DNA of 64,000 nt from Chryseobacterium gleum. Its GTDB lineage: Bacteria > Bacteroidota > Bacteroidia > UBA10329. This document shows positions 14,713 through 43,077 of the stretch, piece after piece. The number at the start of each line of letters is the position of its first letter. Position 1 is the first letter of the stretch. The notes under the pieces were generated by a model. It was given only the letters and a program-made list of their open reading frames with translations, was not told the origin of the DNA and searched no databases. The translations under genes were made by a program, and so were the position numbers. The DNA is taken from assembly GCA_945903645.1 (NCBI GenBank), contig CAMDOM010000001.1, positions 118,491-182,490 of the forward strand, in the 5' to 3' direction.

Positions 14713-16026
14713 GTGAACAGCAACAAACAAGAAATTGCCCTCTTTTGGTTTCGTAGAGACCTTCGTGTGAATGACAACGCAGCTTTATATCACGCACTTC
14801 GTTCTGGCTTGCCTGTTGTTCCAATCTTCATTTTTGACCAAGACATTTTAAATCGATTGGAGGACAAGCGAGATGCGCGCGTTCAATTTATACATCAAGC
14901 AATTGTTAAGCTAAAAGGCGATATCGAAGCTGCTGGTTCAACCCTTATTGTGCGGCACGGAAAGCCTTTTGATGTAATCAGCAACTTCCTTAATGAGTAC
15001 AACGTTCGGGAGGTGTACACCAATCACGACTACGAACCTTACGCCAAGCAGCGCGATGCTGCTATTGCAACCTTTCTTGCTCAAAAGAATAGTGCCTTTC
15101 ACACGTTTAAGGACCAATGTATTTTTGAAAAAGACGAAGTGCTAAAGGATGATGGGTTGCCATACACCGTTTTCACTCCTTACAGCAGAAAATGGAAAGC
15201 TAAACTCAATCCATTTTATTTAAAACCGTATCCCAATCACAAGTATTTGGATGGATTTGCCAAAATGCCGCATGCACCGTTGCTTTCTCTTGCTGCGCTA
15301 GGGTTTTTAGATTCCAGCATTCAATCGCCTTCCATGGAAGTAGGGGAGGAGGTCATTAAAAAGTATCATCTCACCCGCGACATTCCTTCAATTGCGGGAA
15401 CTTCTCGTCTAAGTGTTCATCTTCGTTTTGGAACAATAAGCATCCGTGCTTTAGCAAGTAAAGCTCAGCAGCTCAACGAAACGTATCTGAATGAGCTTAT
15501 TTGGAGAGATTTCTATATGATGATTCTATGGCATTTTCCGCATGTCGCTACATCTGCATTCAGACCTCAGTATGAGCGCATACAGTGGGAAACCAATACC
15601 AAGCATTTTGAGGCATGGTGTCACGGTCAAACTGGTTATCCCATTGTGGATGCAGGTATGCGCGAGTTAAATGCTACGGGCTTCATGCACAACCGTGTGC
15701 GTATGGTGGTGGCCAGTTTTCTCACCAAACACCTATTGCTTGATTGGCGGTGGGGGGAGGCATACTTCGCTTCTAAACTAATCGATTTTGATTTGAGTGC
15801 TAACAATGGCGGTTGGCAATGGGCTGCAGGTACAGGTTGCGATGCTGCGCCATATTTTCGTGTGTTTAGTCCCGATGCTCAAACCTTGAAGTTCGACCCG
15901 CAATTGAAGTACATCCGAAAGTGGGTTCCAGAGTTTCAGGAGCTTACATACACTCGCCCTATAGTTGACCATAAGTGGGCCAGAGAACGTGCACTTATCC
16001 GATACAAAGAAGGATTATCCAAATGA
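14713..16026 (+). CDS. deoxyribodipyrimidine photolyase / cryptochrome-family protein (GTG start)
   Basis: N-terminal FWFRRDLRVNDNAAL. FAD-binding domain TGYPIVDAGMRELNATGFMHNRVRMVVASFL...WGEAYF...NNGGWQWAAGTG. Size is 437 aa. Confidence 0.85.
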   Translation: MNSNKQEIALFWFRRDLRVNDNAALYHALRSGLPVVPIFIFDQDILNRLEDKRDARVQFIHQAIVKLKGDIEAAGSTLIVRHGKPFDVISNFLNEYNVREVYTNHDYEPYAKQRDAAIATFLAQKNSAFHTFKDQCIFEKDEVLKDDGLPYTVFTPYSRKWKAKLNPFYLKPYPNHKYLDGFAKMPHAPLLSLAALGFLDSSIQSPSMEVGEEVIKKYHLTRDIPSIAGTSRLSVHLRFGTISIRALASKAQQLNETYLNELIWRDFYMMILWHFPHVATSAFRPQYERIQWETNTKHFEAWCHGQTGYPIVDAGMRELNATGFMHNRVRMVVASFLTKHLLLDWRWGEAYFASKLIDFDLSANNGGWQWAAGTGCDAAPYFRVFSPDAQTLKFDPQLKYIRKWVPEFQELTYTRPIVDHKWARERALIRYKEGLSK

Positions 16027-16099
16027 TATAGTGGTGTAGACCAAGAAGGCCCATCATAAAACATGCTAGGCCCTCTTGTTTATACAATAAACTGAAGAC

Positions 16100-17893
16100 T
16101 TATTTATTTTTCTTCAAACTGTTTTCAATGTCTAATGCATCTTCAATCTCAATCACAGCGTTATTGAAACGTGCGGTAATTGCAGATTCTTTCACACCCA
16201 TGTTTTGAACTTCTCTTTGCAATTTCTCCGCCTCGTCTTTAGAAGAGAACGAACCAATGGTATACACTTTTACGCCACCTGTGGTCAATTTCATTTCTAC
16301 ACCATACTGACCAATTAGCTTAGACAACTTGTTAAGTTCAATACGCAAACGGTACTCCCTCAATTCAACACAGTAGGTAACCTCATCTTTATCCTCAAAT
16401 CCTTCAATAACCGGGCGTTCGTAGAACGTTTCACCCGGAGTTCCAAGAGCATTTAAGTCTTCAGCTACTTTGTTTACTGATTTTTCAGATACACCAAAAG
16501 CTTCTGCTAAACCTTCTTCGCGTAATTGATTTTGTTTTTTCTCCGCTTCAGAGAAATCGCTGTATGTACCAACGGTGAACACTGAAGTAGAATCATTGAT
16601 TTTACGTTCCACCAAACCAGGCATTTGGCTCAACTTCATTTTCAATTGAGTTGGGATGTCCTGATTTGTGAATGTTCCCAAGTGAACGGTGTAGTTAGGG
16701 TTCTTAACTTTTTGTGAATACAAGAAATCGCCAGAAACTTCGGTGCGTTTGAGAGAAACGGAATCTTTGCCAAATGATTTATAAATGTCTTGATAGCTTA
16801 ATGAAACCCCATCCGGATTAACTAAAGCACCTGGAGGGGTGTTCAATTGCTTGTCTTTAAAGTCAGCAATACCGTCATAGTCAAGGTCAAATGGACATCC
16901 CTTAGAATCTACTGGAATGCCAAGTGGAGTAGCAGAACATTGGTCCAAGAAATCGACAATACCATCGCTATCAGAGTCTTTATTTTCAAGTTCTGAAAAA
17001 TTTGAATAGTTTGCATTTTCCAAATCCAATTTTGGAGCTTTCTTTTTAAATGGGTCGAAACGATAGTACATAGAGAGACTGGTTATTAAAAAACCATCAC
17101 TCATTCCGCCTTCCGAAACATTGTCAATTAAATCTGTGGTTGTAAAGTAGTATGTTGCGCCTAGACGAATGGCCACCTTGCGCGAAGCATTAAAATCAAA
17201 ACCTAATCCTACTGGAAATGCAACTGTCGTAACAGGGGATTTACTCAGTTTCGTTTCATAATCATAATCGCGATAAATAACTTTCTTATCAGACGATTCT
17301 GAGGCTTCGCTCACATCGTAAATCAGTCCGTTGTTCCAATAATTATAAGTGCTTCCATTAGCATCTACCAAATCAGTATAAACATTATAATCAGTATAAC
17401 TGGCCCCCACGGAAATATATGGAGTCATTCCAACTGGGCTTCGCAACACATTATGAAAGTTGTAGGTTAAACTGAAACCAACGCCAAACATTTGAGCTTC
17501 AAAATTGCGATGGGTTCCGAAGTTGTTTTCGTTACCATTTAATGAGCCATACAAACCATCAATATTCAGTTCCAAATAGTTGGTAACGCTTGCACCTGCA
17601 CCAAAACCAAAGGCTGGTCGATTTCCAATGGTATGTACTGTAACGTTATCCTGATCTACAACCTCACCAAAGAATCGCACAATTCCAATGCCGCCATGCA
17701 CGTTGGCCATAAATCTATAAGGTTCTTTTTCTCTTGGAATTCTTACACTTTTCTCTTTGGTTGGTTTTTCTTCTTTCGTAGGTTCAGCAACAACATCTGA
17801 GGTGGTTTCTGTTGGAGTTTCAGAAGAAACCTGTCCAAATGCATTTAAATTGACATATAAAATGATAAGAAATAGCAGGGAAAAGTACTTCAT
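16100..17893 (-). CDS. outer-membrane beta-barrel protein with TSP type-3 Ca-binding repeat and two C-terminal SPOR-like domains (array member 1)
   Basis: Signal peptide. Gly/aromatic-rich beta-strand N-domain sharing ...YNYWNNG...RDYDYETKL... with the paralogs. TSP3 motif DSDSDGIVDFLDQCSATPLGIPVDSKGCPFDLDYDGIADFKD. C-terminal repeats YTVHLGTFTNQD...VFTVGTYSDFSEAEKKQNQL and YCVELREYRLRIE...VYTIGSFSSKDEAEKLQREV match the SPOR pattern Y-x-V-Q-x-G-x-F. Confidence 0.6.
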   Translation of the reverse strand: MKYFSLLFLIILYVNLNAFGQVSSETPTETTSDVVAEPTKEEKPTKEKSVRIPREKEPYRFMANVHGGIGIVRFFGEVVDQDNVTVHTIGNRPAFGFGAGASVTNYLELNIDGLYGSLNGNENNFGTHRNFEAQMFGVGFSLTYNFHNVLRSPVGMTPYISVGASYTDYNVYTDLVDANGSTYNYWNNGLIYDVSEASESSDKKVIYRDYDYETKLSKSPVTTVAFPVGLGFDFNASRKVAIRLGATYYFTTTDLIDNVSEGGMSDGFLITSLSMYYRFDPFKKKAPKLDLENANYSNFSELENKDSDSDGIVDFLDQCSATPLGIPVDSKGCPFDLDYDGIADFKDKQLNTPPGALVNPDGVSLSYQDIYKSFGKDSVSLKRTEVSGDFLYSQKVKNPNYTVHLGTFTNQDIPTQLKMKLSQMPGLVERKINDSTSVFTVGTYSDFSEAEKKQNQLREEGLAEAFGVSEKSVNKVAEDLNALGTPGETFYERPVIEGFEDKDEVTYCVELREYRLRIELNKLSKLIGQYGVEMKLTTGGVKVYTIGSFSSKDEAEKLQREVQNMGVKESAITARFNNAVIEIEDALDIENSLKKNK

Positions 17894-17931
17894 AATTTAA
17901 AAGGTTAGTTTTCTAAAATACGTCAAGTAGT

Positions 17932-19905
17932 TTAATCCTCGAAGAATAGGTCTATGAGATCATTAATGTCGCTTGTGGTATATTTTGATTTACCCGATTT
18001 GAATTCTGCAATGGCTCGGTTTACCTCATCAGGGGTTAGTTTTCCGTCTCCGCTATAATCAACCGATTGGAATTTTTTAACCAAGAATCGTTCATTGTCA
18101 GTAAGACCATCATCTTTATAGTTTTCCAGAATATTAAGTTTACCTTTTATGTAAACTGCCGAAGTACCTCCAAAGTCAACCACACGAGCATCCTCCATAT
18201 TTTCTTTGTAGAAATCTATCAAACCATAGACTTGACCTGCACTGAGGTTTGAATTCCCATCAACTGATTCTTCAATAGAGCGCAATACTTCATCTGCAGT
18301 AAGTAATCCATCATCATTAAAATCTACTGACTTGTAAACTGCTGGAATCAAATCACCAGTGTTTGAATTACGGCTAATGTTCAACTCTGTTTTCGAATCA
18401 ATCCTGCCATCATCTACCATTTTGCCATAAACCCGGTACGCTGCGTTGTACACTTCATCCACATTGGAAGCTTCTTTAGCAGTGCCTTTGAAAATTTCTT
18501 TCGCAATTTCGTCCATAAGAATGCTGGTTTCGGTAACCTTATTGGCATTCTGAGCAATGGAATTCATCATTTCTGATAATCGAGCTGCGTCAGTTTTATT
18601 AGGGGCAGTTGTCGAATTTTCATTGAGGTTTGACGTATTTTCTTTAACTGCACTTTCAGTTTTCGAGCTGGCAACCTCGGGTGCTGCAGTTAATTGGGAA
18701 TTTGCTTTTGATTGAGCAAAAGCTTTGGGTTGAATTTCGAGAATACCGCTTGGGTAGATACTATTCATTTTGGCCCTATTCGTTCCCACAGAATCCGAAT
18801 AGCTCTGTAACATCATTTCATCTGTAAGCCCAACTCCTTCAAGATTGGCAATCTTGTCAACACTTGTAAACTCTTCTTTGTCTCTAAAGTCTTCTACTAT
18901 ATCACGATCCGTGTCTACAGGGCAACCATTCTCATCCACAACTGCTCCTTCTGGAGTTTTTGCACACATATCATCAAAGTCATTTACGCCATCTGCGTCC
19001 GCATCTGCAAGAGAAAGTGCATAAAAGTCAAACTCCTCAAAGTAATTGGACTTCTCAGTTTTAGTATAACCACTTTTAACTCCAATGCTATACGCCACAG
19101 AAAGTGAAGTGTATAGGAACATATCGTTTGCTTTATTGCCTTGACGTGCTCCATTTCCTCTCCACGTAAAGTCGTCAATCAAATCAGTAAAGGTGTAATA
19201 GAATGAAGAACTTAATCGACCACTCATTTTTCTACCCATTTTGAAATCTAGACCTAGACTAACTGGAATCGAAAAAGTGAATAAATCATATTTTCCTAAG
19301 CCATCATTGTCCTGTTTTCTCAAATCTGTTTCGAAAGTGTAATCGCGTTGTAATGAAACCGCTTGATTAGCCATTTCACTATCCTCTGCAACATTCATAA
19401 TTGATCCGTCAGACCAATAATGGTACTCATTTCCATTAGCATCCTTCAAATCTGTTTTACTGTCAAAATGAATAAATGCAACTCCCACAGAGATGAATGG
19501 CTGAACAATTCCAGGCTTTTTGTAAAGGTGATTGAAGTTGTACGTTACCCCAACTCCGCCAATAAAAAGTTCTGATTTGAAGTTTAAGTTTCGGGTTGTC
19601 GTACGTTCGTTGACTGTAATATCACCGTAGATGATATTTAAATCGATGTCAAAATAGCGTGAGATATTTGCAGACGAACGCCCTTCAAATCCCCAACTGC
19701 TTGTGAACGGATGGTTAAGATTGTTGTCTTTTACGTCTCCGAGGTAAGTGAAGAAACCTGCTCCAACTCCAATTCGCGGAGCTAGAAGGGCGTCTTTACC
19801 GCGATTGTCGAGATAGTATATGGAGTCGCTCTGCGCAAAAGTGCTTACAGCACATGATATTACGAGAGAAAATGGAAGTAAAATTCTTATCATAGGGTAT
19901 TGCAA
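17932..19905 (-). CDS. outer-membrane beta-barrel / TSP3-repeat / C-terminal EF-hand protein (array member 2)
   Basis: Signal peptide. N-domain motifs ANGNEYHYWSDGSI...LQRDYTFETDLRK. TSP3 DADADGVNDFDDMCAKTPEGAVVDENGCPVDTDRD. Canonical EF-hand loops DFNDDGLLTADE and DYSGDGKLTPDE. The C-terminus is DLIDLFFED. Confidence 0.6.
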   Translation of the reverse strand: MQYPMIRILLPFSLVISCAVSTFAQSDSIYYLDNRGKDALLAPRIGVGAGFFTYLGDVKDNNLNHPFTSSWGFEGRSSANISRYFDIDLNIIYGDITVNERTTTRNLNFKSELFIGGVGVTYNFNHLYKKPGIVQPFISVGVAFIHFDSKTDLKDANGNEYHYWSDGSIMNVAEDSEMANQAVSLQRDYTFETDLRKQDNDGLGKYDLFTFSIPVSLGLDFKMGRKMSGRLSSSFYYTFTDLIDDFTWRGNGARQGNKANDMFLYTSLSVAYSIGVKSGYTKTEKSNYFEEFDFYALSLADADADGVNDFDDMCAKTPEGAVVDENGCPVDTDRDIVEDFRDKEEFTSVDKIANLEGVGLTDEMMLQSYSDSVGTNRAKMNSIYPSGILEIQPKAFAQSKANSQLTAAPEVASSKTESAVKENTSNLNENSTTAPNKTDAARLSEMMNSIAQNANKVTETSILMDEIAKEIFKGTAKEASNVDEVYNAAYRVYGKMVDDGRIDSKTELNISRNSNTGDLIPAVYKSVDFNDDGLLTADEVLRSIEESVDGNSNLSAGQVYGLIDFYKENMEDARVVDFGGTSAVYIKGKLNILENYKDDGLTDNERFLVKKFQSVDYSGDGKLTPDEVNRAIAEFKSGKSKYTTSDINDLIDLFFED

Positions 19906-19929
19906 CTTAGCGCTAAAAATAGATAAAGA

Positions 19930-21939
19930 TTACTCTTGGTCGAAATAGTAGTCAATTAGGTTTTGAATGTCTTCAACAGTCAATGTGCCATCACCATCAA
20001 AAAGGCTATCTATAAAGTAAAGCACTTCCGTTGCAGTGATGTTTCCATTCTCATCACGGTCGGCCCAATGGAAGGTGCCTGTAGCCTTTGGCGAAACCTG
20101 TTGTAAATCTTTTAAAGTGATTTGACCATTATTCGATGAAGTTTTTTCGTCTTGATAATTTTTGGATATACTCGAAGCGATGTTACCAGTTTTAGACGAT
20201 TTTGTTTGATTCGCTTGATTTTGATTTGATGAATTAGAAGTAGTGATTTCCTGATTGGACTGATTAGATTTAGTCTCATTCGGATTAGAAGAATTTACAT
20301 CTTCTGGTTTTAAATGTGCGTTTGTTTGTAACGACTTGTTTTCTTCCGAAGGAGTTAAAGTTGTATCTTTAATTGTCTGTTTAGCCTTGTCATTTTCAGC
20401 TAATGCAGCAGAATTACTTTCAGTGTTTTCCGCCCAAGTAGTTCTTGCTTTTTCTTCCGAAGTCAGCTCATTTGAATTCCTAGATTCGCCTGTTTTACCT
20501 TCATTGGAATTCTCTGAATCTCGACTCGCGGAAATTGACTTGACATTAGCGTCATTTTTAATGGGTGCAATATCTTTATCTGAGTCTTTCTTTGCCTGAC
20601 TGTTTTCGCTTAGACTATCTGGGAGTGATAAATTCTGATTTGTGCCTGTTACATTGGATTTCGTGCCATTTGCAAATTGAGTAATTTCCGCGCTGTTATT
20701 CTTGGTTTTAGTTAATTGTGTATTATTTTTTACAGTAGAGTCCGCAATGGATGTCGCATCAGTGCTTGCTTTAGAAGTAGTAATCACTACATCACCTTGC
20801 TCGTTATCAATGGATTTTTTATTGGCAATTGTATCGGAGTTCCCCTTAGATGTTACTTCAGCGTTTTCTGAAGAATTAACACTCACTGCACTGCTTTGAT
20901 TGTTTTCAGCCGATTGAATACTGGTTATTCCATTAGAGTTTCTGGTTGAAAGCTCATCCAAACTTCCTGAAGCGTTAACTAACTCAGACACTTCAGTTTC
21001 AGGTCTAGATGATTTGCTATTTGATTTTTCTACTGATTTATTAGAGCCCCAACGATTAGGTGTTGTGGTAGCCAACGTTTGCTCAGTGTCCCGAATACTA
21101 GTTGTACGCTTTGCGCCCAGAAACACATTAATTCCGATTGACCCAAAAATATGATTGTCGTTCCCACTTGCACTTTTGCGTGTTCCGATACTACCAGCAC
21201 CTGAATTATCCAGCATTTCTGAAAAGTTCAAAGCATAAGTAAATGCCGCATTCACACCAAAATGTTTGGTTATTTGAAAGCGAATCCCAGCATTGATGGG
21301 AATAGTGAAAGTAGTTTGTGGATATTTTCTTAATCCATCTAGGTTGGCGTCTCTTAAATCACTTTCGTAATTGAAATCACGCTGTAGAAGTACCGCAGAT
21401 TCAGCATAGGCATCATTTTCTGCTATGCTACGAATTGTTCCGTCCGTCCAATAGTTATATGTTTCTCCAGCAGATGATGTCAAGTCACCTTTGGAACGAA
21501 AAAACATTGCTCCAAGACCAAAACCAATATATGGTCGTATCAATTGCTTTCCTTGTGCGTTTGGTTTTAAAAGTGGATAGAAATTATATTCCACACAAAG
21601 CTGTTGGCTGAATAGGGATGTGCGATAATTTAAGTTATAAAACCCACGTATTTCTTCCCCGTAGACTGTTCCCGTAAATAGATTCAGAGAAACATTAAGG
21701 AACTTGGCTATTGGTTGCGTAATGTTCAGTTGGAAGCCAAACTGAGTAAAAGCACTTGGACCGGATTGGTTAAGTGCAACATCCGATAACATATTCACAA
21801 AACCAAGGTTTACACCTATTTCAGGTAGATTAATTTGTTTATTGTTTTTCGATGCAATGGTATCTATGCTCTGCGCATCCACATGGAAAGTGAAAATCAC
21901 AAGTGAAGCAACAATCCCAAAAAGACATGGGCTTTTCAT
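19930..21939 (-). CDS. outer-membrane beta-barrel protein with about 300-aa S/N/T/K-rich disordered region and C-terminal EF-hand module (array member 3)
   Basis: Signal peptide. N-domain SAGETYNYWTDGTIRSIAEN...LQRDFNYESDLRD. Long low-complexity Ser/Asn/Thr/Lys/Glu segment with no TSP3. C-terminal EF-hand loop DRDENGNITATE, then ...LIDYYFDQE. Confidence 0.55.
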   Translation of the reverse strand: MKSPCLFGIVASLVIFTFHVDAQSIDTIASKNNKQINLPEIGVNLGFVNMLSDVALNQSGPSAFTQFGFQLNITQPIAKFLNVSLNLFTGTVYGEEIRGFYNLNYRTSLFSQQLCVEYNFYPLLKPNAQGKQLIRPYIGFGLGAMFFRSKGDLTSSAGETYNYWTDGTIRSIAENDAYAESAVLLQRDFNYESDLRDANLDGLRKYPQTTFTIPINAGIRFQITKHFGVNAAFTYALNFSEMLDNSGAGSIGTRKSASGNDNHIFGSIGINVFLGAKRTTSIRDTEQTLATTTPNRWGSNKSVEKSNSKSSRPETEVSELVNASGSLDELSTRNSNGITSIQSAENNQSSAVSVNSSENAEVTSKGNSDTIANKKSIDNEQGDVVITTSKASTDATSIADSTVKNNTQLTKTKNNSAEITQFANGTKSNVTGTNQNLSLPDSLSENSQAKKDSDKDIAPIKNDANVKSISASRDSENSNEGKTGESRNSNELTSEEKARTTWAENTESNSAALAENDKAKQTIKDTTLTPSEENKSLQTNAHLKPEDVNSSNPNETKSNQSNQEITTSNSSNQNQANQTKSSKTGNIASSISKNYQDEKTSSNNGQITLKDLQQVSPKATGTFHWADRDENGNITATEVLYFIDSLFDGDGTLTVEDIQNLIDYYFDQE

Positions 21940-22019
21940 GGCCGTATCCTAGAGTTCAAATGAAAAAATAACCCCGCCAAAGCAGGGTTATTTACAGTTA
22001 TATATTTAAACAGGTTAAA

Positions 22020-23177
22020 TTACTGACCTGCAATATTCAAAGCTTCTTGCACTGTTATACGAACTCCATTGTTGTAGGCAGTTACGAATGGTCCAGCTAC
22101 ACCGTTTGTATCACGCAACTCATTGCTGTACGTTTTGGCAGGGCGGTATGAACCAAATTCACCAACAACATACTTGCTTAATCCTTCGTGATTTTCTACA
22201 GAAATGGCGTCTGAAATATTGTGTTTGGAAGCAAACAAAGCTGATTCTGTGCTTTTTGGTCCAGCTGCAATCTGAACTCGGAAAACTAATCCTGGTTTGC
22301 TTTTCAATTCAGAAGCACTAGAAGAAGCTCTGGCAGGTTGCGATTTAACAACTGGTTTGGATTCTTGTGCTTTAGCTTGTTCCGCTTGTTTGCGCTGAGC
22401 TTCTTGGTCTGCAGCAGCTTTGGCGTCTTGCGACTTCTTTACTTCGGTAGCGCGTTTTTCTTCTGCAACTTGTGCGTCTGCTGCAGAAGTGCTGCTGGCA
22501 GGTTGGCTTGAAGACTCTTGTGTTGAAGTTGACTCAGCTGCTGTGTTGGATGCTTCTTGTGCATTAGTATTAGTTGATTCCGCAGGTTTGGCTACTTCTT
22601 GAGATGTGGCTATTTCAGCAGGTTTAGCAGCCTCCTCGGCTTGTGCTGCAGCTCTAGTAGCCGCAGCAGCTTCCTCTTTACGTTTTTGGTCTTCCATTGC
22701 TTGGTTAGCAACAGCAGCGTTTTGTGATGCAGCGGTTGGGTCAGAAGAAACTACAATGATGTCCTTCGGAAGTACAAATTTTTCAGTTTCGTTATTACGA
22801 ATAAAGGAGAAGTTACCCTCCATAATTTGATTTCCGCTAACGCTTGCATCAACTACCACTTTATACGACACTTTTATGTCTGTAGTTGAAGGTAAGGCCA
22901 TCCATAGAAATTTCACTTTTCTATCCTTAAAAGAGAATGTTGAATTTGCACTTTCTCCTGGCATCGCTGTAAATCCAGTGGGTAAATCCTGCTGCAATTT
23001 TGCAAAACCAGTTACATCACCTTTGCTAATATTTAGCTCTACATTAAATTCACCTCCTGGCTTTACTGTAGGGGGAATCTTTGTGGTGACAGACACCTGA
23101 GCCAATAATGTGACTGTAGTAAGGCCGGCAAATACAATGGTAAGTAAAGATTTCTGTATCATTTCTTGAGATGTCAA
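22020..23177 (-). CDS. SPOR-domain protein with N-terminal beta-rich domain and Ala/Glu/Gln/Lys-rich linker
   Basis: Signal peptide/anchor, an N-domain of about 140 aa, and a roughly 150-aa A/E/Q/K/S low-complexity linker. The C-terminal roughly 75 aa (LVFRVQIAAGPKS...KYVVGEFGSYRPAKTYSNELRDT) match the SPOR peptidoglycan-binding pattern. Confidence 0.6.
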   Translation of the reverse strand: MTSQEMIQKSLLTIVFAGLTTVTLLAQVSVTTKIPPTVKPGGEFNVELNISKGDVTGFAKLQQDLPTGFTAMPGESANSTFSFKDRKVKFLWMALPSTTDIKVSYKVVVDASVSGNQIMEGNFSFIRNNETEKFVLPKDIIVVSSDPTAASQNAAVANQAMEDQKRKEEAAAATRAAAQAEEAAKPAEIATSQEVAKPAESTNTNAQEASNTAAESTSTQESSSQPASSTSAADAQVAEEKRATEVKKSQDAKAAADQEAQRKQAEQAKAQESKPVVKSQPARASSSASELKSKPGLVFRVQIAAGPKSTESALFASKHNISDAISVENHEGLSKYVVGEFGSYRPAKTYSNELRDTNGVAGPFVTAYNNGVRITVQEALNIAGQ

Positions 23178-23206
23178 TTTTACGGGGGCGAAGGTATTAT
23201 TATTTG

Positions 23207-24610
23207 TTATTGTTCAAAGAAGTAGTCAATTAACTCGGTAAGTTCAACTACTGTGACTTTTAATTCACCATCAAAGAACTGATCGATTGCTGTGTAAACT
23301 TCATCCACACTTATTTTGCCATTTCGATTGAAATCGAATGTTTTTAGGATTTGAGCACCTTCAACTGTTATTGAGGCTGTCTTTTCCTCTTCACGAGTTT
23401 TATAAAGTGCAATGAGTTCCGGATAAATTTCAAACATTTTAGCCCGAACGGTTCCTACGGTGTCCTTCGTTGGAATCATTTCATCAGTGTAACCAACGCC
23501 AACCATATTCACATTCAATTTAGCATCCGTAGCCGCCTCATCGTCCAAATGGTCTTCCACTCCATCTAAGTCTGAATCGGTAGGACAGCCAAATTCATCC
23601 ACTTTTGCTCCTTTTGGAGTTTCAGGACAGCGGTCGTTAATGTCTTGTATGCCATCTCCATCTGGATCACCATCTAGAGATTCAAATTCGAATGCTGCGA
23701 ATTGATTATCCTTGGTTTTATCTTTTTTAGGAGTGAAGAAATCGTAGTGATATGAAATCCCCGTGTACATAAAAAAATCATTTGAAGCATCGCCAACCCT
23801 ACCTGGCTTACCATCTCGAGTATAACCATCAATTAAGTCAGTAATTGTGTAGTGGAAAGTTGTGGTTAGCTTGATGTTTGATCGCGGAGATACTTTGAAG
23901 TCTAACCCAAACGTGAATGGAATGCTTAGCGCAAACTCAGGATAGTTGCCAAGGCTATCAAGGTTGGACTTACGCATATCTGTTTCATAGTCATAATCTC
24001 TACGAAGTATTTCTGCGTTTTCAGAGTTTAATGCGCCTTCTGCAGCGCTGCGCAATGTTCCATCACTCCAACTATTGTAAAGACGGCCTTCAGAATCCCG
24101 CAAATCACTTTTTGTAGTAAAGTTAAACGCTCCGATACCCACAGCAATAAATGGGCTTAAAAATCGCTTTGGAGGTAGAATACCAGCAAAATTGTAGGTT
24201 CCATGGATATCAAATGCAATTAAGTCAGTTGAGAAATTCACATTTCTTTCAATTGAACGCTCGTGCGCTGATATGCGACCATATGTTACATTGAATTGCA
24301 TTCCAAAAGAAGGCGTGAAATTCTTGGTAGCTACGAACTGCAACCCCAAGTTATGAAGCATCACATTGGAACGGTCATTATTTGTGATTTCTCCGAAATA
24401 ATTCATAAAACCAGCCCCTACCCCAATAATTGGATTATATATTGTATTCTCTTTGTTCCATAGTTTGCGTTCTGCATTCTTGGAATCGCGAATTGCTTTT
24501 TTCGCTTCCGCTTCTGCGCTAGCAGCAACTTTGGCAGTGTCAGACTGTGCCATTCCAACAAAAGGCAAGCAACACAAGAGTAAAAGATAAAGAGTTCGTA
24601 GGTTCATCAA
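23207..24610 (-). CDS. outer-membrane beta-barrel / TSP3-repeat / C-terminal EF-hand protein (array member 4)
   Basis: Signal peptide. N-domain SEGRLYNSWSDGTLRSAAEG...LRRDYDYETDMRK. TSP3 DGDPDGDGIQDINDRCPETPKGAKVDEFGCPTDSDLDGVEDHLDDE. EF-hand loop DFNRNGKISVDE. The C-terminus is ELIDYFFEQ. Confidence 0.6.
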   Translation of the reverse strand: MMNLRTLYLLLLCCLPFVGMAQSDTAKVAASAEAEAKKAIRDSKNAERKLWNKENTIYNPIIGVGAGFMNYFGEITNNDRSNVMLHNLGLQFVATKNFTPSFGMQFNVTYGRISAHERSIERNVNFSTDLIAFDIHGTYNFAGILPPKRFLSPFIAVGIGAFNFTTKSDLRDSEGRLYNSWSDGTLRSAAEGALNSENAEILRRDYDYETDMRKSNLDSLGNYPEFALSIPFTFGLDFKVSPRSNIKLTTTFHYTITDLIDGYTRDGKPGRVGDASNDFFMYTGISYHYDFFTPKKDKTKDNQFAAFEFESLDGDPDGDGIQDINDRCPETPKGAKVDEFGCPTDSDLDGVEDHLDDEAATDAKLNVNMVGVGYTDEMIPTKDTVGTVRAKMFEIYPELIALYKTREEEKTASITVEGAQILKTFDFNRNGKISVDEVYTAIDQFFDGELKVTVVELTELIDYFFEQ

Positions 24611-24613
24611 GGT

Positions 24614-26032
24614 TTACTGCTCGAAGAAGAAATCAATCAAATCGTGTAACTTATCTGCTGAGAAATCCAATTCGCCCTCGAAGAAAGCGTCAATGGCCCA
24701 TGTAATCTCATCGGCTGAAATGAATCCATCATTATCTCTATCAACAACTACGAAATCGCCAAGGGTGGTAGCTGCGCGATAGGTTTCTGGAGCTTCCAAC
24801 GAATATAAGCTTTTGGCGGGTTTGCCTTGAATACTCGGGAAAGCCAAATAACGTACGTCCCTGTTTACTGCTATCGTGTCAGATTTTAGTAGCTCATCTT
24901 CATTCACTGTCACACCAAGTTTGTCAACCACTGCATCTGCAGCGCTATTACCTTCTTGGTCGTTGTAGTCGGCAATACCATCACCATCGCCATCTTTCGG
25001 GCAACCGAACAAATCCACTTTTACGCCATCTGGAGTGCCAGCACACAAATCTTCCAAATTCCTTACTCCATCACCGTCATCATCTCCTTTATCCAACGCC
25101 AAGAAGTCAATAGCATCAAACTGTGAAGGTGGTTTTTGGGTCTTTTTCGCAGCGATATTGTACCCAAATCCTATAGATGTAAACAAGATGTGATCGGATT
25201 GAGAACCATTCTCAAAATTGTCTAAGTAGTCCGTCAAACTCCAATAGTACGTGGCTTTAACATCTCCGTAGAATTTATTGGAAAACTTATAACGTAATCC
25301 AACTCCAAAAGGAATTGTAATGGCATTTCTTGAATACGTACCTCCTGAAACAGCTGGGTCGTTGGAATAGGCTTCTTTTAACTCAGTTTCGTATTTGCGG
25401 TCAAGCGATAGTGTTTGGGCCACACCCAAATTCTCAGGGTTTTTAACTCGATCGCGAATAGACCCATCATCCCAATAGTTGTAAGCGCGGCCTTGATTAT
25501 CGAGTAGGTCAGCTTTGGGAGTGAAGTTTACAATATATCCTACACCACCAAATAAGTATGGGGAAAATTTAGAAGAGCGATTGATGAACAAATTATTGTC
25601 TAAATAGACCTTCACATGCATGTCAATTTGCATGAACGTGGTTTCCACATTGCGATTTAATAATGCAACAGGAGAACGTTCGTTTTCAGATACTTGTCCA
25701 TACAGGAAACCCAATGAAAAACCAACTGCACTAAATGTACGATGCTCCAAACCACCATAAATACCCCAACGCCAGTTGGTAGTATTGTAAACTTTCAAAT
25801 CTTTCGAAATATCGTCTGCCATCAACGATAAATTTCCTCCACCTATATATATGGAAGGCATTTTATTGTCATAAAATGGAGGACGGGGCTTTTTTTCTTT
25901 CAGAACTTTAGGCTCCTTTTCAGGTTTTTCCGTCTTAGCTTTCTCTTTCGTCTTGCCTTCTACTTTTTCCTGCGCGGCTAGAGGAAGTGCTAGATTTGTT
26001 AAGAAAATACAAAGTAAAAGTTTAAGCTTCAT
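24614..26032 (-). CDS. outer-membrane beta-barrel / TSP3-repeat / C-terminal EF-hand protein (array member 5)
   Basis: Signal peptide. N-domain NQGRAYNYWDDGSIRDRV...LDRKYETELKE. TSP3 DKGDDDGDGVRNLEDLCAGTPDGVKVDLFGCPKDGDGDGIADYNDQE. EF-hand loop DRDNDGFISADE. The C-terminus is DLIDFFFEQ. A 3-bp gap separates it from the next gene. Confidence 0.6.
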   Translation of the reverse strand: MKLKLLLCIFLTNLALPLAAQEKVEGKTKEKAKTEKPEKEPKVLKEKKPRPPFYDNKMPSIYIGGGNLSLMADDISKDLKVYNTTNWRWGIYGGLEHRTFSAVGFSLGFLYGQVSENERSPVALLNRNVETTFMQIDMHVKVYLDNNLFINRSSKFSPYLFGGVGYIVNFTPKADLLDNQGRAYNYWDDGSIRDRVKNPENLGVAQTLSLDRKYETELKEAYSNDPAVSGGTYSRNAITIPFGVGLRYKFSNKFYGDVKATYYWSLTDYLDNFENGSQSDHILFTSIGFGYNIAAKKTQKPPSQFDAIDFLALDKGDDDGDGVRNLEDLCAGTPDGVKVDLFGCPKDGDGDGIADYNDQEGNSAADAVVDKLGVTVNEDELLKSDTIAVNRDVRYLAFPSIQGKPAKSLYSLEAPETYRAATTLGDFVVVDRDNDGFISADEITWAIDAFFEGELDFSADKLHDLIDFFFEQ

Positions 26033-42785: not shown

Positions 42786-43077
42786 TACGCTATTGTTCGC
42801 TATCAATTCGGTAGCTACTTTTGCGCACGTTCTTTGCATTCTTACTTATCCAGAAAGACGGAGGGATTAGGCCCGCTGATGTCTTGGCAACCCCAATTGT
42901 TGGAAGGTGCCAAATCCTGCTCTAAGCGAAAGCTAGGAGAGAGATAGGTTGTAGCTCCACTGTGGACTTCTAACTTGACACCATCATGCCCATCCAACAC
43001 CCATTGGAAGGGCATTTTTGTTTGGAATAAGTGATGTGTGATGCGCGAAAAATGATGTGAATCTTAATTTTTGAACA

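Follow-up and report, generated by a model that had tools for sequence, protein, structure and literature searches.

In a 64,000-nucleotide stretch of contig CAMDOM010000001.1 (the window, whose positions are used throughout), we analyzed the gene g6 of an uncultured Flavobacteriales bacterium. Its product has an OmpA/OprF-like architecture in which a pair of SPOR domains sits where an OmpA_C domain is normally found. Taken overall, the best explanation is that g6 probably serves as an OmpA/OprF-style connector between the outer membrane and peptidoglycan, with the SPOR pair in place of OmpA_C, and works together with the neighboring gene product g3 and a set of paralogous barrel proteins. Each part of g6 falls into a known family, and the design principle is not new; the barrel-SPOR combination itself is without a description that we could find in the literature. 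Here we establish the identity, order and conservation of the domains of g6 and the structure of its operon.

The features of g6 are listed below. Confidence in the structural models is given as the predicted local distance difference test score (pLDDT), and TSP3 stands for thrombospondin type 3. SPOR domains of known structure share a single highly conserved side chain, a Gln on strand beta1 (RlpA Q270, FtsN Q251, DamX Q351; PMC6895207), and the residue at this position is given for each repeat.

16100..17893, minus strand: g6, an open reading frame of 597 aa with an ATG start, stop codon included; last gene of a six-gene cluster
17834..17893, minus strand: signal peptide, residues 1-20 (MKYFSLLFLIILYVNLNAFG), followed by Gln21; from the sequence, with a model helix at residues 2-18
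17720..17833, minus strand: disordered N-terminal segment rich in Lys, Glu, Pro and Thr, residues 21-58; from the sequence, with pLDDT <50 at residues 20-54
17051..17719, minus strand: outer-membrane beta-barrel of eight strands, residues 59-281, with the invariant F279 at the end of the last one
17234..17374, minus strand: 47-residue insert between barrel strands 5 and 6, residues 174-220; from model secondary structure (pLDDT ~81-84) and the paralog alignment
16850..16984, minus strand: Asp-rich calcium-binding motif of the TSP3 type, residues 304-348, in which two Cys are invariant
16484..16699, minus strand: SPOR domain 1, residues 399-470, beta1 YTVHLGTF, with His404 at the Gln position
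16148..16381, minus strand: SPOR domain 2, residues 505-582, beta1 YCVELREY, with Glu510 at the Gln position and an extra C-terminal strand

A protein identical to g6 (P0001) is encoded on an ENA/NCBI metagenome contig, and about 78 full-length orthologs share 44-89% identity with it. A scan of genome contigs with an unspecific TSP3 peptide pattern gave one full-length ortholog, L005. Residue conservation is given over 78 of these sequences and Pfam family matches over 75 (E<=0.01). Wherever a source supplies a name for an ortholog, that name is "hypothetical protein"; one distant relative carries only the name "thrombospondin type 3 repeat-containing protein".

The C-terminus of g6 consists of two SPOR domains

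The initial annotation of this locus had proposed two SPOR-like repeats in the C-terminal part of the protein, quoting four peptides that start at residues 401, 438, 507 and 543, all within the last ~200 aa. Both repeats are present. Against the Pfam SPOR family (PF05036), the whole protein scored 32.4 bits (E 1.1e-7; gathering score 21) over two stretches, and repeat 1 scanned alone scored 22.0 bits (E 2e-4), above the cut-off. The family was matched by 47 of the 75 orthologs. Profiles of the two repeats, each built from the 78 orthologs, aligned with one another in hhalign with a probability of 95.4% and an E of 2e-8. The four other barrel paralogs of the cluster provide an internal negative control, and none of them gave a Pfam match to SPOR.

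Searching 1.84 billion cluster representatives in phmmer with the C-terminal 222 residues recovered 273 proteins at E<=1e-3. When distant matches were sampled, 65 of 70 were Pfam SPOR proteins (best E 4e-21), and many of the sampled representatives that have the C-terminal module also carry the same barrel and TSP3 segment. Direct sequence matches of the SPOR region to PDB entries were weak (E 0.02-0.4).

For structural modeling, residues 376-597 were aligned with 81 homologs (alignment A1) and submitted to AlphaFold2. The resulting model (mean pLDDT 79.6) contains two beta-alpha-beta-beta-alpha-beta units joined by a disordered linker, with a helix after each unit. The full-length model agrees on the two SPOR-type units. 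Each unit has the RNP-like fold with a four-stranded antiparallel sheet; the second is extended by an additional strand at its end (strands at 570-576 and 579-581). The best single-domain match in Foldseek was the SPOR domain of CwlC (probability 1.0, TM 0.63). A significant SPOR match and the RNP-like fold, whose absence the initial annotation had named as a refutation of its prediction, were thus both obtained. We conclude that the SPOR homology of the g6 repeats is secure, and that it is real rather than a chance likeness.

The tandem SPOR module is also found at the C-terminus of many otherwise dissimilar proteins (P0265-P0399), which range from 200 to ~2400 aa. One of these has a PorP/SprF barrel of the type IX secretion system (T9SS; PF11751, E 5e-29), and others carry PD40 or CarboxypepD_reg domains. 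Judged by these sequence matches, outer-membrane proteins that end in SPOR domains may be frequent within the sampled homolog set.

An outer-membrane barrel and a TSP3-type linker precede the SPOR domains

The N-terminal half of g6 has the expected features of an exported outer-membrane protein: a signal peptide and eight antiparallel transmembrane strands. A Gln directly past the signal peptidase I site is a Bacteroidetes pattern, which Gln21 fits, and Q21 is kept in at least 90% of the orthologs. Pfam OMP_b-brl (PF13505) aligned with the g6 barrel at 18.2-22.7 bits, below its gathering score of 28.7. The ortholog P0045 passes this threshold at 30.2 bits, and 34 of 75 orthologs match. The last barrel strand is closed by the invariant F279, and a terminal Phe at this point resembles the beta-signal.

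Strands 5 and 6 are separated by the 47-residue insert, whose motif DLxDxxGxxYxYWxxGxI...RDYxYET is common to all of the barrel paralogs and to the consensus of distant relatives. By the usual topology of outer-membrane proteins the insert would be an extracellular loop; its conservation would be unusual for such a loop.

The segment that follows the barrel resembles TSP3 repeats. Pfam TSP_3 (PF02412) scored 12.5 bits with g6 itself (cut-off 25) and was matched by 62 of 75 orthologs. Invariant residues in this segment are D306, D308, D310, G311, D314, D317, C319, C333, D336, D338 and D340. In addition, the g6 family profile aligned with the TSP3 repeats in 5wtl, a structure from the OmpA family (E 0.11). 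A group of proteins with 40-58% identity to the g6 TSP3 segment (P0097-P0120) carries OMP_b-brl or TSP_3 together with OmpA_C (PF00691). Because the number of barrel strands is even and relatives have OmpA_C at the same position, we infer that the g6 tail lies in the periplasm. The fusion of an outer-membrane barrel, a TSP3 linker and SPOR domains that had been predicted for this gene is borne out by the modeled eight-stranded barrel and by the TSP3 matches among the orthologs.

g6 is the last gene of a conserved six-gene operon

The other members of the cluster are as follows.

24614..26032, minus strand: g1, barrel paralog with TSP3, whose C-terminus is an EF-hand-like tail with the end LIDFFFEQ; 28% identity to g6
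23207..24610, minus strand: g2, barrel paralog with TSP3 and an EF-hand-like tail; 30% identity to g6
22020..23177, minus strand: g3, secreted protein with no barrel; signal peptide, N-terminal domain of ~120 residues, Ala/Glu/Gln-rich linker and SPOR-like C-terminus of ~90 residues
22023..22298, minus strand: SPOR-like C-terminal domain of g3, with the canonical Gln kept (FRVQIAAG)
19930..21939, minus strand: g4, barrel paralog that lacks TSP3; a long low-complexity stretch rich in Ser, Asn and Thr precedes its EF-hand-like tail
17932..19905, minus strand: g5, barrel paralog with TSP3 and two EF-hand-like segments; 35% identity to g6

The six genes lie on the same strand with short gaps. The barrel paralogs g1, g2, g4, g5 and g6 are 25-41% identical to one another in pairwise comparisons, and the EF-hand-like tails of the first four share a conserved LIDxFF(E/D)Q end. 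Comparison of the loci L001-L004 showed the complete set of six genes in three other genomes, with gene order and position-specific tails unchanged. Identity between g6 and its orthologs in those operons is 46-52%, and the genes that flank the operon vary from genome to genome. The initial annotation had referred to g6 as a member of an "array", a term that undersells the locus. Recent duplication can be rejected, given that the paralogs are only 25-41% identical and that each position is orthologous across genomes. On these sequence comparisons, the cluster is an old conserved operon with a fixed gene order.

The ends of the four EF-hand-like tails are near-identical (LIDFFFEQ, LIDYFFEQ, LIDYYFDQE and LIDLFFED), position-specific and conserved across genomes. 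In g4, ~330 residues of low-complexity sequence rich in Ser, Asn, Thr and Lys separate the barrel from the EF-hand tail, and orthologous loci differ in the length of this gene (480-873 aa). The G+C content of the operon (window positions 16001..24000) is 0.38-0.41, compared with ~0.45-0.46 in the flanks, and low-complexity linkers may be a partial cause of the low value. The 80-nt gap between g3 and g4 contains a strong terminator-like hairpin (21966..21993, minus strand) with a 12-bp stem followed by a T-run. This hairpin could serve as an attenuator or divide the operon into two transcripts, g1-g3 and g4-g6. A sigma-70 promoter scan, which does not cover Bacteroidota promoters, returned 24 sites where 25 were expected. 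Elsewhere in the window, and unrelated to g6, is an S-adenosylmethionine (SAM) riboswitch (42843..42950, plus strand; Rfam RF00162, 81 bits, gathering score 44.4).

g3 is a likely partner of g6

The initial annotation had also placed a SPOR domain in the 22020..23177 gene, g3, and here the evidence is divided. The g3 C-terminus aligned with g6 SPOR domain 2 in hhalign at 96.8% (E 2.6e-10), and the alignment included the extra C-terminal strand; Pfam SPOR gave no match to g3 even at E<=10. In a PDB profile search the top two matches of the g3 C-terminus were the SPOR domains of DamX (2lfv, E 0.033) and CwlC (E 0.54), both weak. Q302, the Gln on beta1, is invariant in every g3 sequence that we aligned. 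Orthologs of g3 occupy the same operon position, and two g3 homologs carry the JGI name "septal ring-binding cell division protein DamX".

A g3-like gene also accompanies barrel-SPOR genes outside the six-gene operon. Proteins of ~700-790 aa with 28-31% identity to g6 (P0082-P0085 and P0089) consist of a barrel, a TSP3 segment and three SPOR repeats (barrel-TSP3-3xSPOR). One member of this cluster comes from a Parvicellaceae metagenome-assembled genome. The last two repeats of these relatives have the canonical RVQ(L/I)GAF motif, and in the first repeat the Gln position is often taken by E, S or M. A g3 homolog lies immediately upstream of P0089 and P0084, at both of the loci examined (E 3e-36 and 3e-19). 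The same arrangement, a g3-like gene directly upstream of a barrel-TSP3-3xSPOR gene, was seen in L062, L063 and L064, which represent two distant lineages. In two of the g3 homologs (L062:5214-6650 and L064:459-2030) the N-terminal domain is duplicated. Because a g3 homolog stands upstream in both loci, the conserved core would seem to be the g3-like protein plus the barrel-SPOR protein, with the EF-hand-tailed barrels as an apparent lineage-specific expansion. Together, these observations suggest that g3 is a likely partner of g6.

In L062 (8903-10537) and L063 (9825-11459) the barrel-3xSPOR gene is closely followed by a Peptidase_S41 gene (C-terminal processing protease); in L064 (11109-12692) such a gene lies ~7 kb downstream of it. 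We saw no Peptidase_S41 gene beside the six-gene operon of the window.

Proposed function of g6

We propose that g6 would be exported by the Sec pathway and inserted into the outer membrane on the OmpA/OprF plan, with both ends of its eight-stranded barrel in the periplasm. The barrel would be followed by the calcium-binding TSP3 segment, presumably stabilized by a disulfide, and then by a periplasmic cell-wall-binding module made of the two SPOR domains. The exposed beta-sheet faces of these domains would link the outer membrane non-covalently to the glycan strands of peptidoglycan. In doing so, g6 would most likely act with the five other products of the operon, namely the four EF-hand-tailed barrels and g3. 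Attachment of g6 to peptidoglycan is likely, as judged from the ligands of characterized SPOR domains.

Whether the module would also direct g6 to the septum depends on how closely it follows those domains. SPOR domains bind peptide-free glycan through contacts that are mostly main-chain and lie on the beta-sheet; a basic patch is also needed, and peptide stems are sterically excluded (PMC6895207). The beta1 Gln (Q270 in RlpA) contacts the lactyl carboxylate of N-acetylmuramic acid MurNAc(1) as well as the N-acetylglucosamine GlcNAc(2), and F274, four residues further on, bends the glycan (PMC6895207). Within Bacteroidota, the SPOR domain of Cytophaga CHU2221 binds denuded glycan at ~1 uM and localizes to the E. 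coli septum (bioRxiv 10.1101/2022.07.01.498525). The g6 repeats retain the aromatic residue at the +4 position, F408 and Y514, each being Y or F in all orthologs.

Several observations weigh against the connector that we propose or against a septal role for it. The canonical beta1 Gln has no counterpart in either repeat: the position is held by His404 in 78/78 orthologs and by Glu510 in 77/78. Alignment to CwlC and to the canonical repeats of distant homologs confirmed this register, and in the alignment of SPOR domain 2 with the CwlC SPOR structure 1x60 the Glu pairs with the Gln. Among distant homologs the position is Q in 182 of 211 occurrences of the motif, E in 5 and H in 3. Repeat 2 scanned alone against Pfam SPOR fell narrowly under the cut-off (19.5 bits, E 1.2e-3). 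When the two-domain model was used in Foldseek, most matches were generic tandem ACT-like proteins with a root-mean-square deviation (rmsd) above 12 Å; the rank-1 match of the C-terminal model was multi-domain, at an rmsd of 12.5 Å, and was disregarded. The ferredoxin-like fold is common. Finally, none of the neighbors of g6 is a known division gene.

The effect of the Gln replacement is not the same for every part of the proposal. The beta1 Gln is preferred rather than universal among SPOR domains (PMC6895207), and its loss therefore lowers confidence in the inferred function more than in the homology. In FtsN, the Q251E substitution reportedly lowers septal localization and the binding of denuded glycan by the isolated domain, as cited in a preprint (bioRxiv 10.1101/2024.05.13.594014). 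Septal targeting by g6 is thus unproven, because the Gln is replaced and a comparable change weakens binding in FtsN. Unlike the SPOR homology, denuded-glycan specificity is not secure for g6. The proposal that the protein is a septal tether accordingly survives in its architecture and is weakened in its location, and we hold specific binding to denuded septal glycans to be a tentative and somewhat doubtful possibility.

The strongest alternative accepts the repeats as true SPOR homologs and supposes that their ligand has changed. They would then bind peptidoglycan generally, or a modified glycan, without specificity for the division site; g6 would be a general OmpA-like anchor and the septal role would be left to g3. 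The near-invariance of His404 and Glu510 points to selection on the exposed beta1 face, and it fits this explanation, as do the predominance of Q among distant homologs and the reported effect of FtsN Q251E. So do the Gln that g3 keeps in every aligned sequence and the pattern in the 3xSPOR relatives, where the first repeat departs from Q and the later ones retain it. On the other hand, contacts that are mostly main-chain and a steric exclusion of peptide stems may allow specificity to survive the loss of Gln. His is able to donate a hydrogen bond to a carboxylate, and the His of SPOR domain 1 could plausibly stand in for Gln. In repeat 2, R/K512 is conserved two residues past E510 on beta1; by the alternation of side chains along a beta-strand it would face the same side as E510 and could supply a positive charge. 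On balance, we regard a changed ligand as unlikely, while giving it more weight than the other alternatives.

A second alternative is that the SPOR-fold domains are mainly protein-protein modules that assemble the six operon products, for example by contacting g3 or the EF-hand-like tails, with peptidoglycan binding secondary or absent. The strictly conserved gene order with its position-specific tails is consistent with such a role, as are the pairing of a g3-like gene with a barrel-SPOR gene across distant lineages and the unusually well conserved surface residues of both g6 SPOR domains. Against it, the broader family has canonical, Q-bearing SPOR repeats at the same position, which argues for a role at peptidoglycan, and we know of no SPOR domain that works as a protein-protein module. 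We therefore consider this explanation improbable. That the SPOR similarity is a chance likeness of two generic ferredoxin-like (ACT- or RRM-like) domains, carrying no functional information, is very improbable and effectively rejected by the homology evidence above, even though single-repeat scores lie near the Pfam threshold (22.0 and 19.5 bits), tandem ACT-like proteins head the Foldseek matches and PDB sequence matches are weak.

The outer membrane-peptidoglycan connector thus remains our preferred explanation, and it can be extended. In the broadest version, g3 and g6 would form the core of a new Bacteroidota envelope system that, during constriction, ties the outer membrane to septal peptidoglycan processed by amidases, as a barrel-based functional counterpart of RlpA/Pal that four calcium-binding, EF-hand-tailed barrels have expanded into a six-protein complex. 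We view this version as speculative and rather unlikely. The EF-hand-like tails of the paralogs might be thought of as having a putative dockerin-like role towards the N-terminal domain of g3.

Comparison with known systems

The closest design is that of OmpA/OprF, in which an eight-stranded barrel is joined to a periplasmic OmpA_C domain; Bacteroidota versions have TSP3 linkers, as in the plan of g6. What sets g6 apart is that SPOR domains replace OmpA_C and that strands 5 and 6 of its barrel are separated by the conserved 47-residue insert. The ligand of OmpA_C is the peptide stem, whereas SPOR takes glycan without stems. PF00691 gave no match to g6 at E<=1. We therefore rejected true membership of the OmpA family, although the overall design works like OmpA.

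RlpA, a lipoprotein of the outer membrane, combines a DPBB lytic transglycosylase domain with a SPOR domain at its C-terminus. Like RlpA, g6 is an outer-membrane-anchored SPOR protein; unlike RlpA, it has a barrel as its anchor, two SPOR domains, no DPBB and no equivalent of Q270. The NCBIfam RlpA models (TIGR00413 / NF007953) scored 13-16 bits with g6, over the SPOR region only, against cut-offs of 82-201. With no Cys lipobox at the N-terminus, no DPBB and scores far below cut-off, identity with RlpA was rejected. The tandem repeats of CwlC, a Gram-positive amidase of Bacillus subtilis with the motif YKVQIGAF, gave SPOR its name; by comparison, g6 belongs to the outer membrane and has H and E in place of the Gln. 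FtsN, DamX and DedD share the SPOR fold with g6. These proteins are bitopic in the inner membrane and have a single SPOR domain with the conserved Gln, whereas g6 is anchored in the outer membrane.

The barrel-TSP3-3xSPOR proteins of other Bacteroidota have in common with g6 the barrel and its insert motif, the TSP3 segment and the C-terminal SPOR repeats. They differ in having three repeats and, at both loci examined, in forming a gene pair without the six-gene operon of EF-hand-tailed paralogs. For the barrels of g6 and its paralogs, the best NCBIfam and Pfam similarity is to the small barrels of T9SS PorG and DUF6089. PorG has neither a TSP3 segment nor a SPOR tail. The PorG model NF052316 reached 35.6 bits, far from its equivalog cut-off of 130, and identity with PorG was rejected. 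The literature that we searched contained no description of a barrel-SPOR architecture and likewise nothing relevant on DUF6089.

Implications for the Bacteroidota envelope

How the outer membrane of Bacteroidota is attached to the wall and pulled inward at division is poorly understood. To our knowledge, the characterized SPOR proteins are all either inner-membrane proteins or the lipoprotein RlpA. OmpA_C-type domains and covalent lipoproteins are two links between the outer membrane and the wall; if the proposal is correct, a barrel-anchored SPOR protein would be a third. With His and Glu occurring naturally at the Gln position, g6 offers ready tests of SPOR ligand specificity. The six-gene operon and the gene pair that recurs across lineages provide a defined, fully uncharacterized target for genetics.

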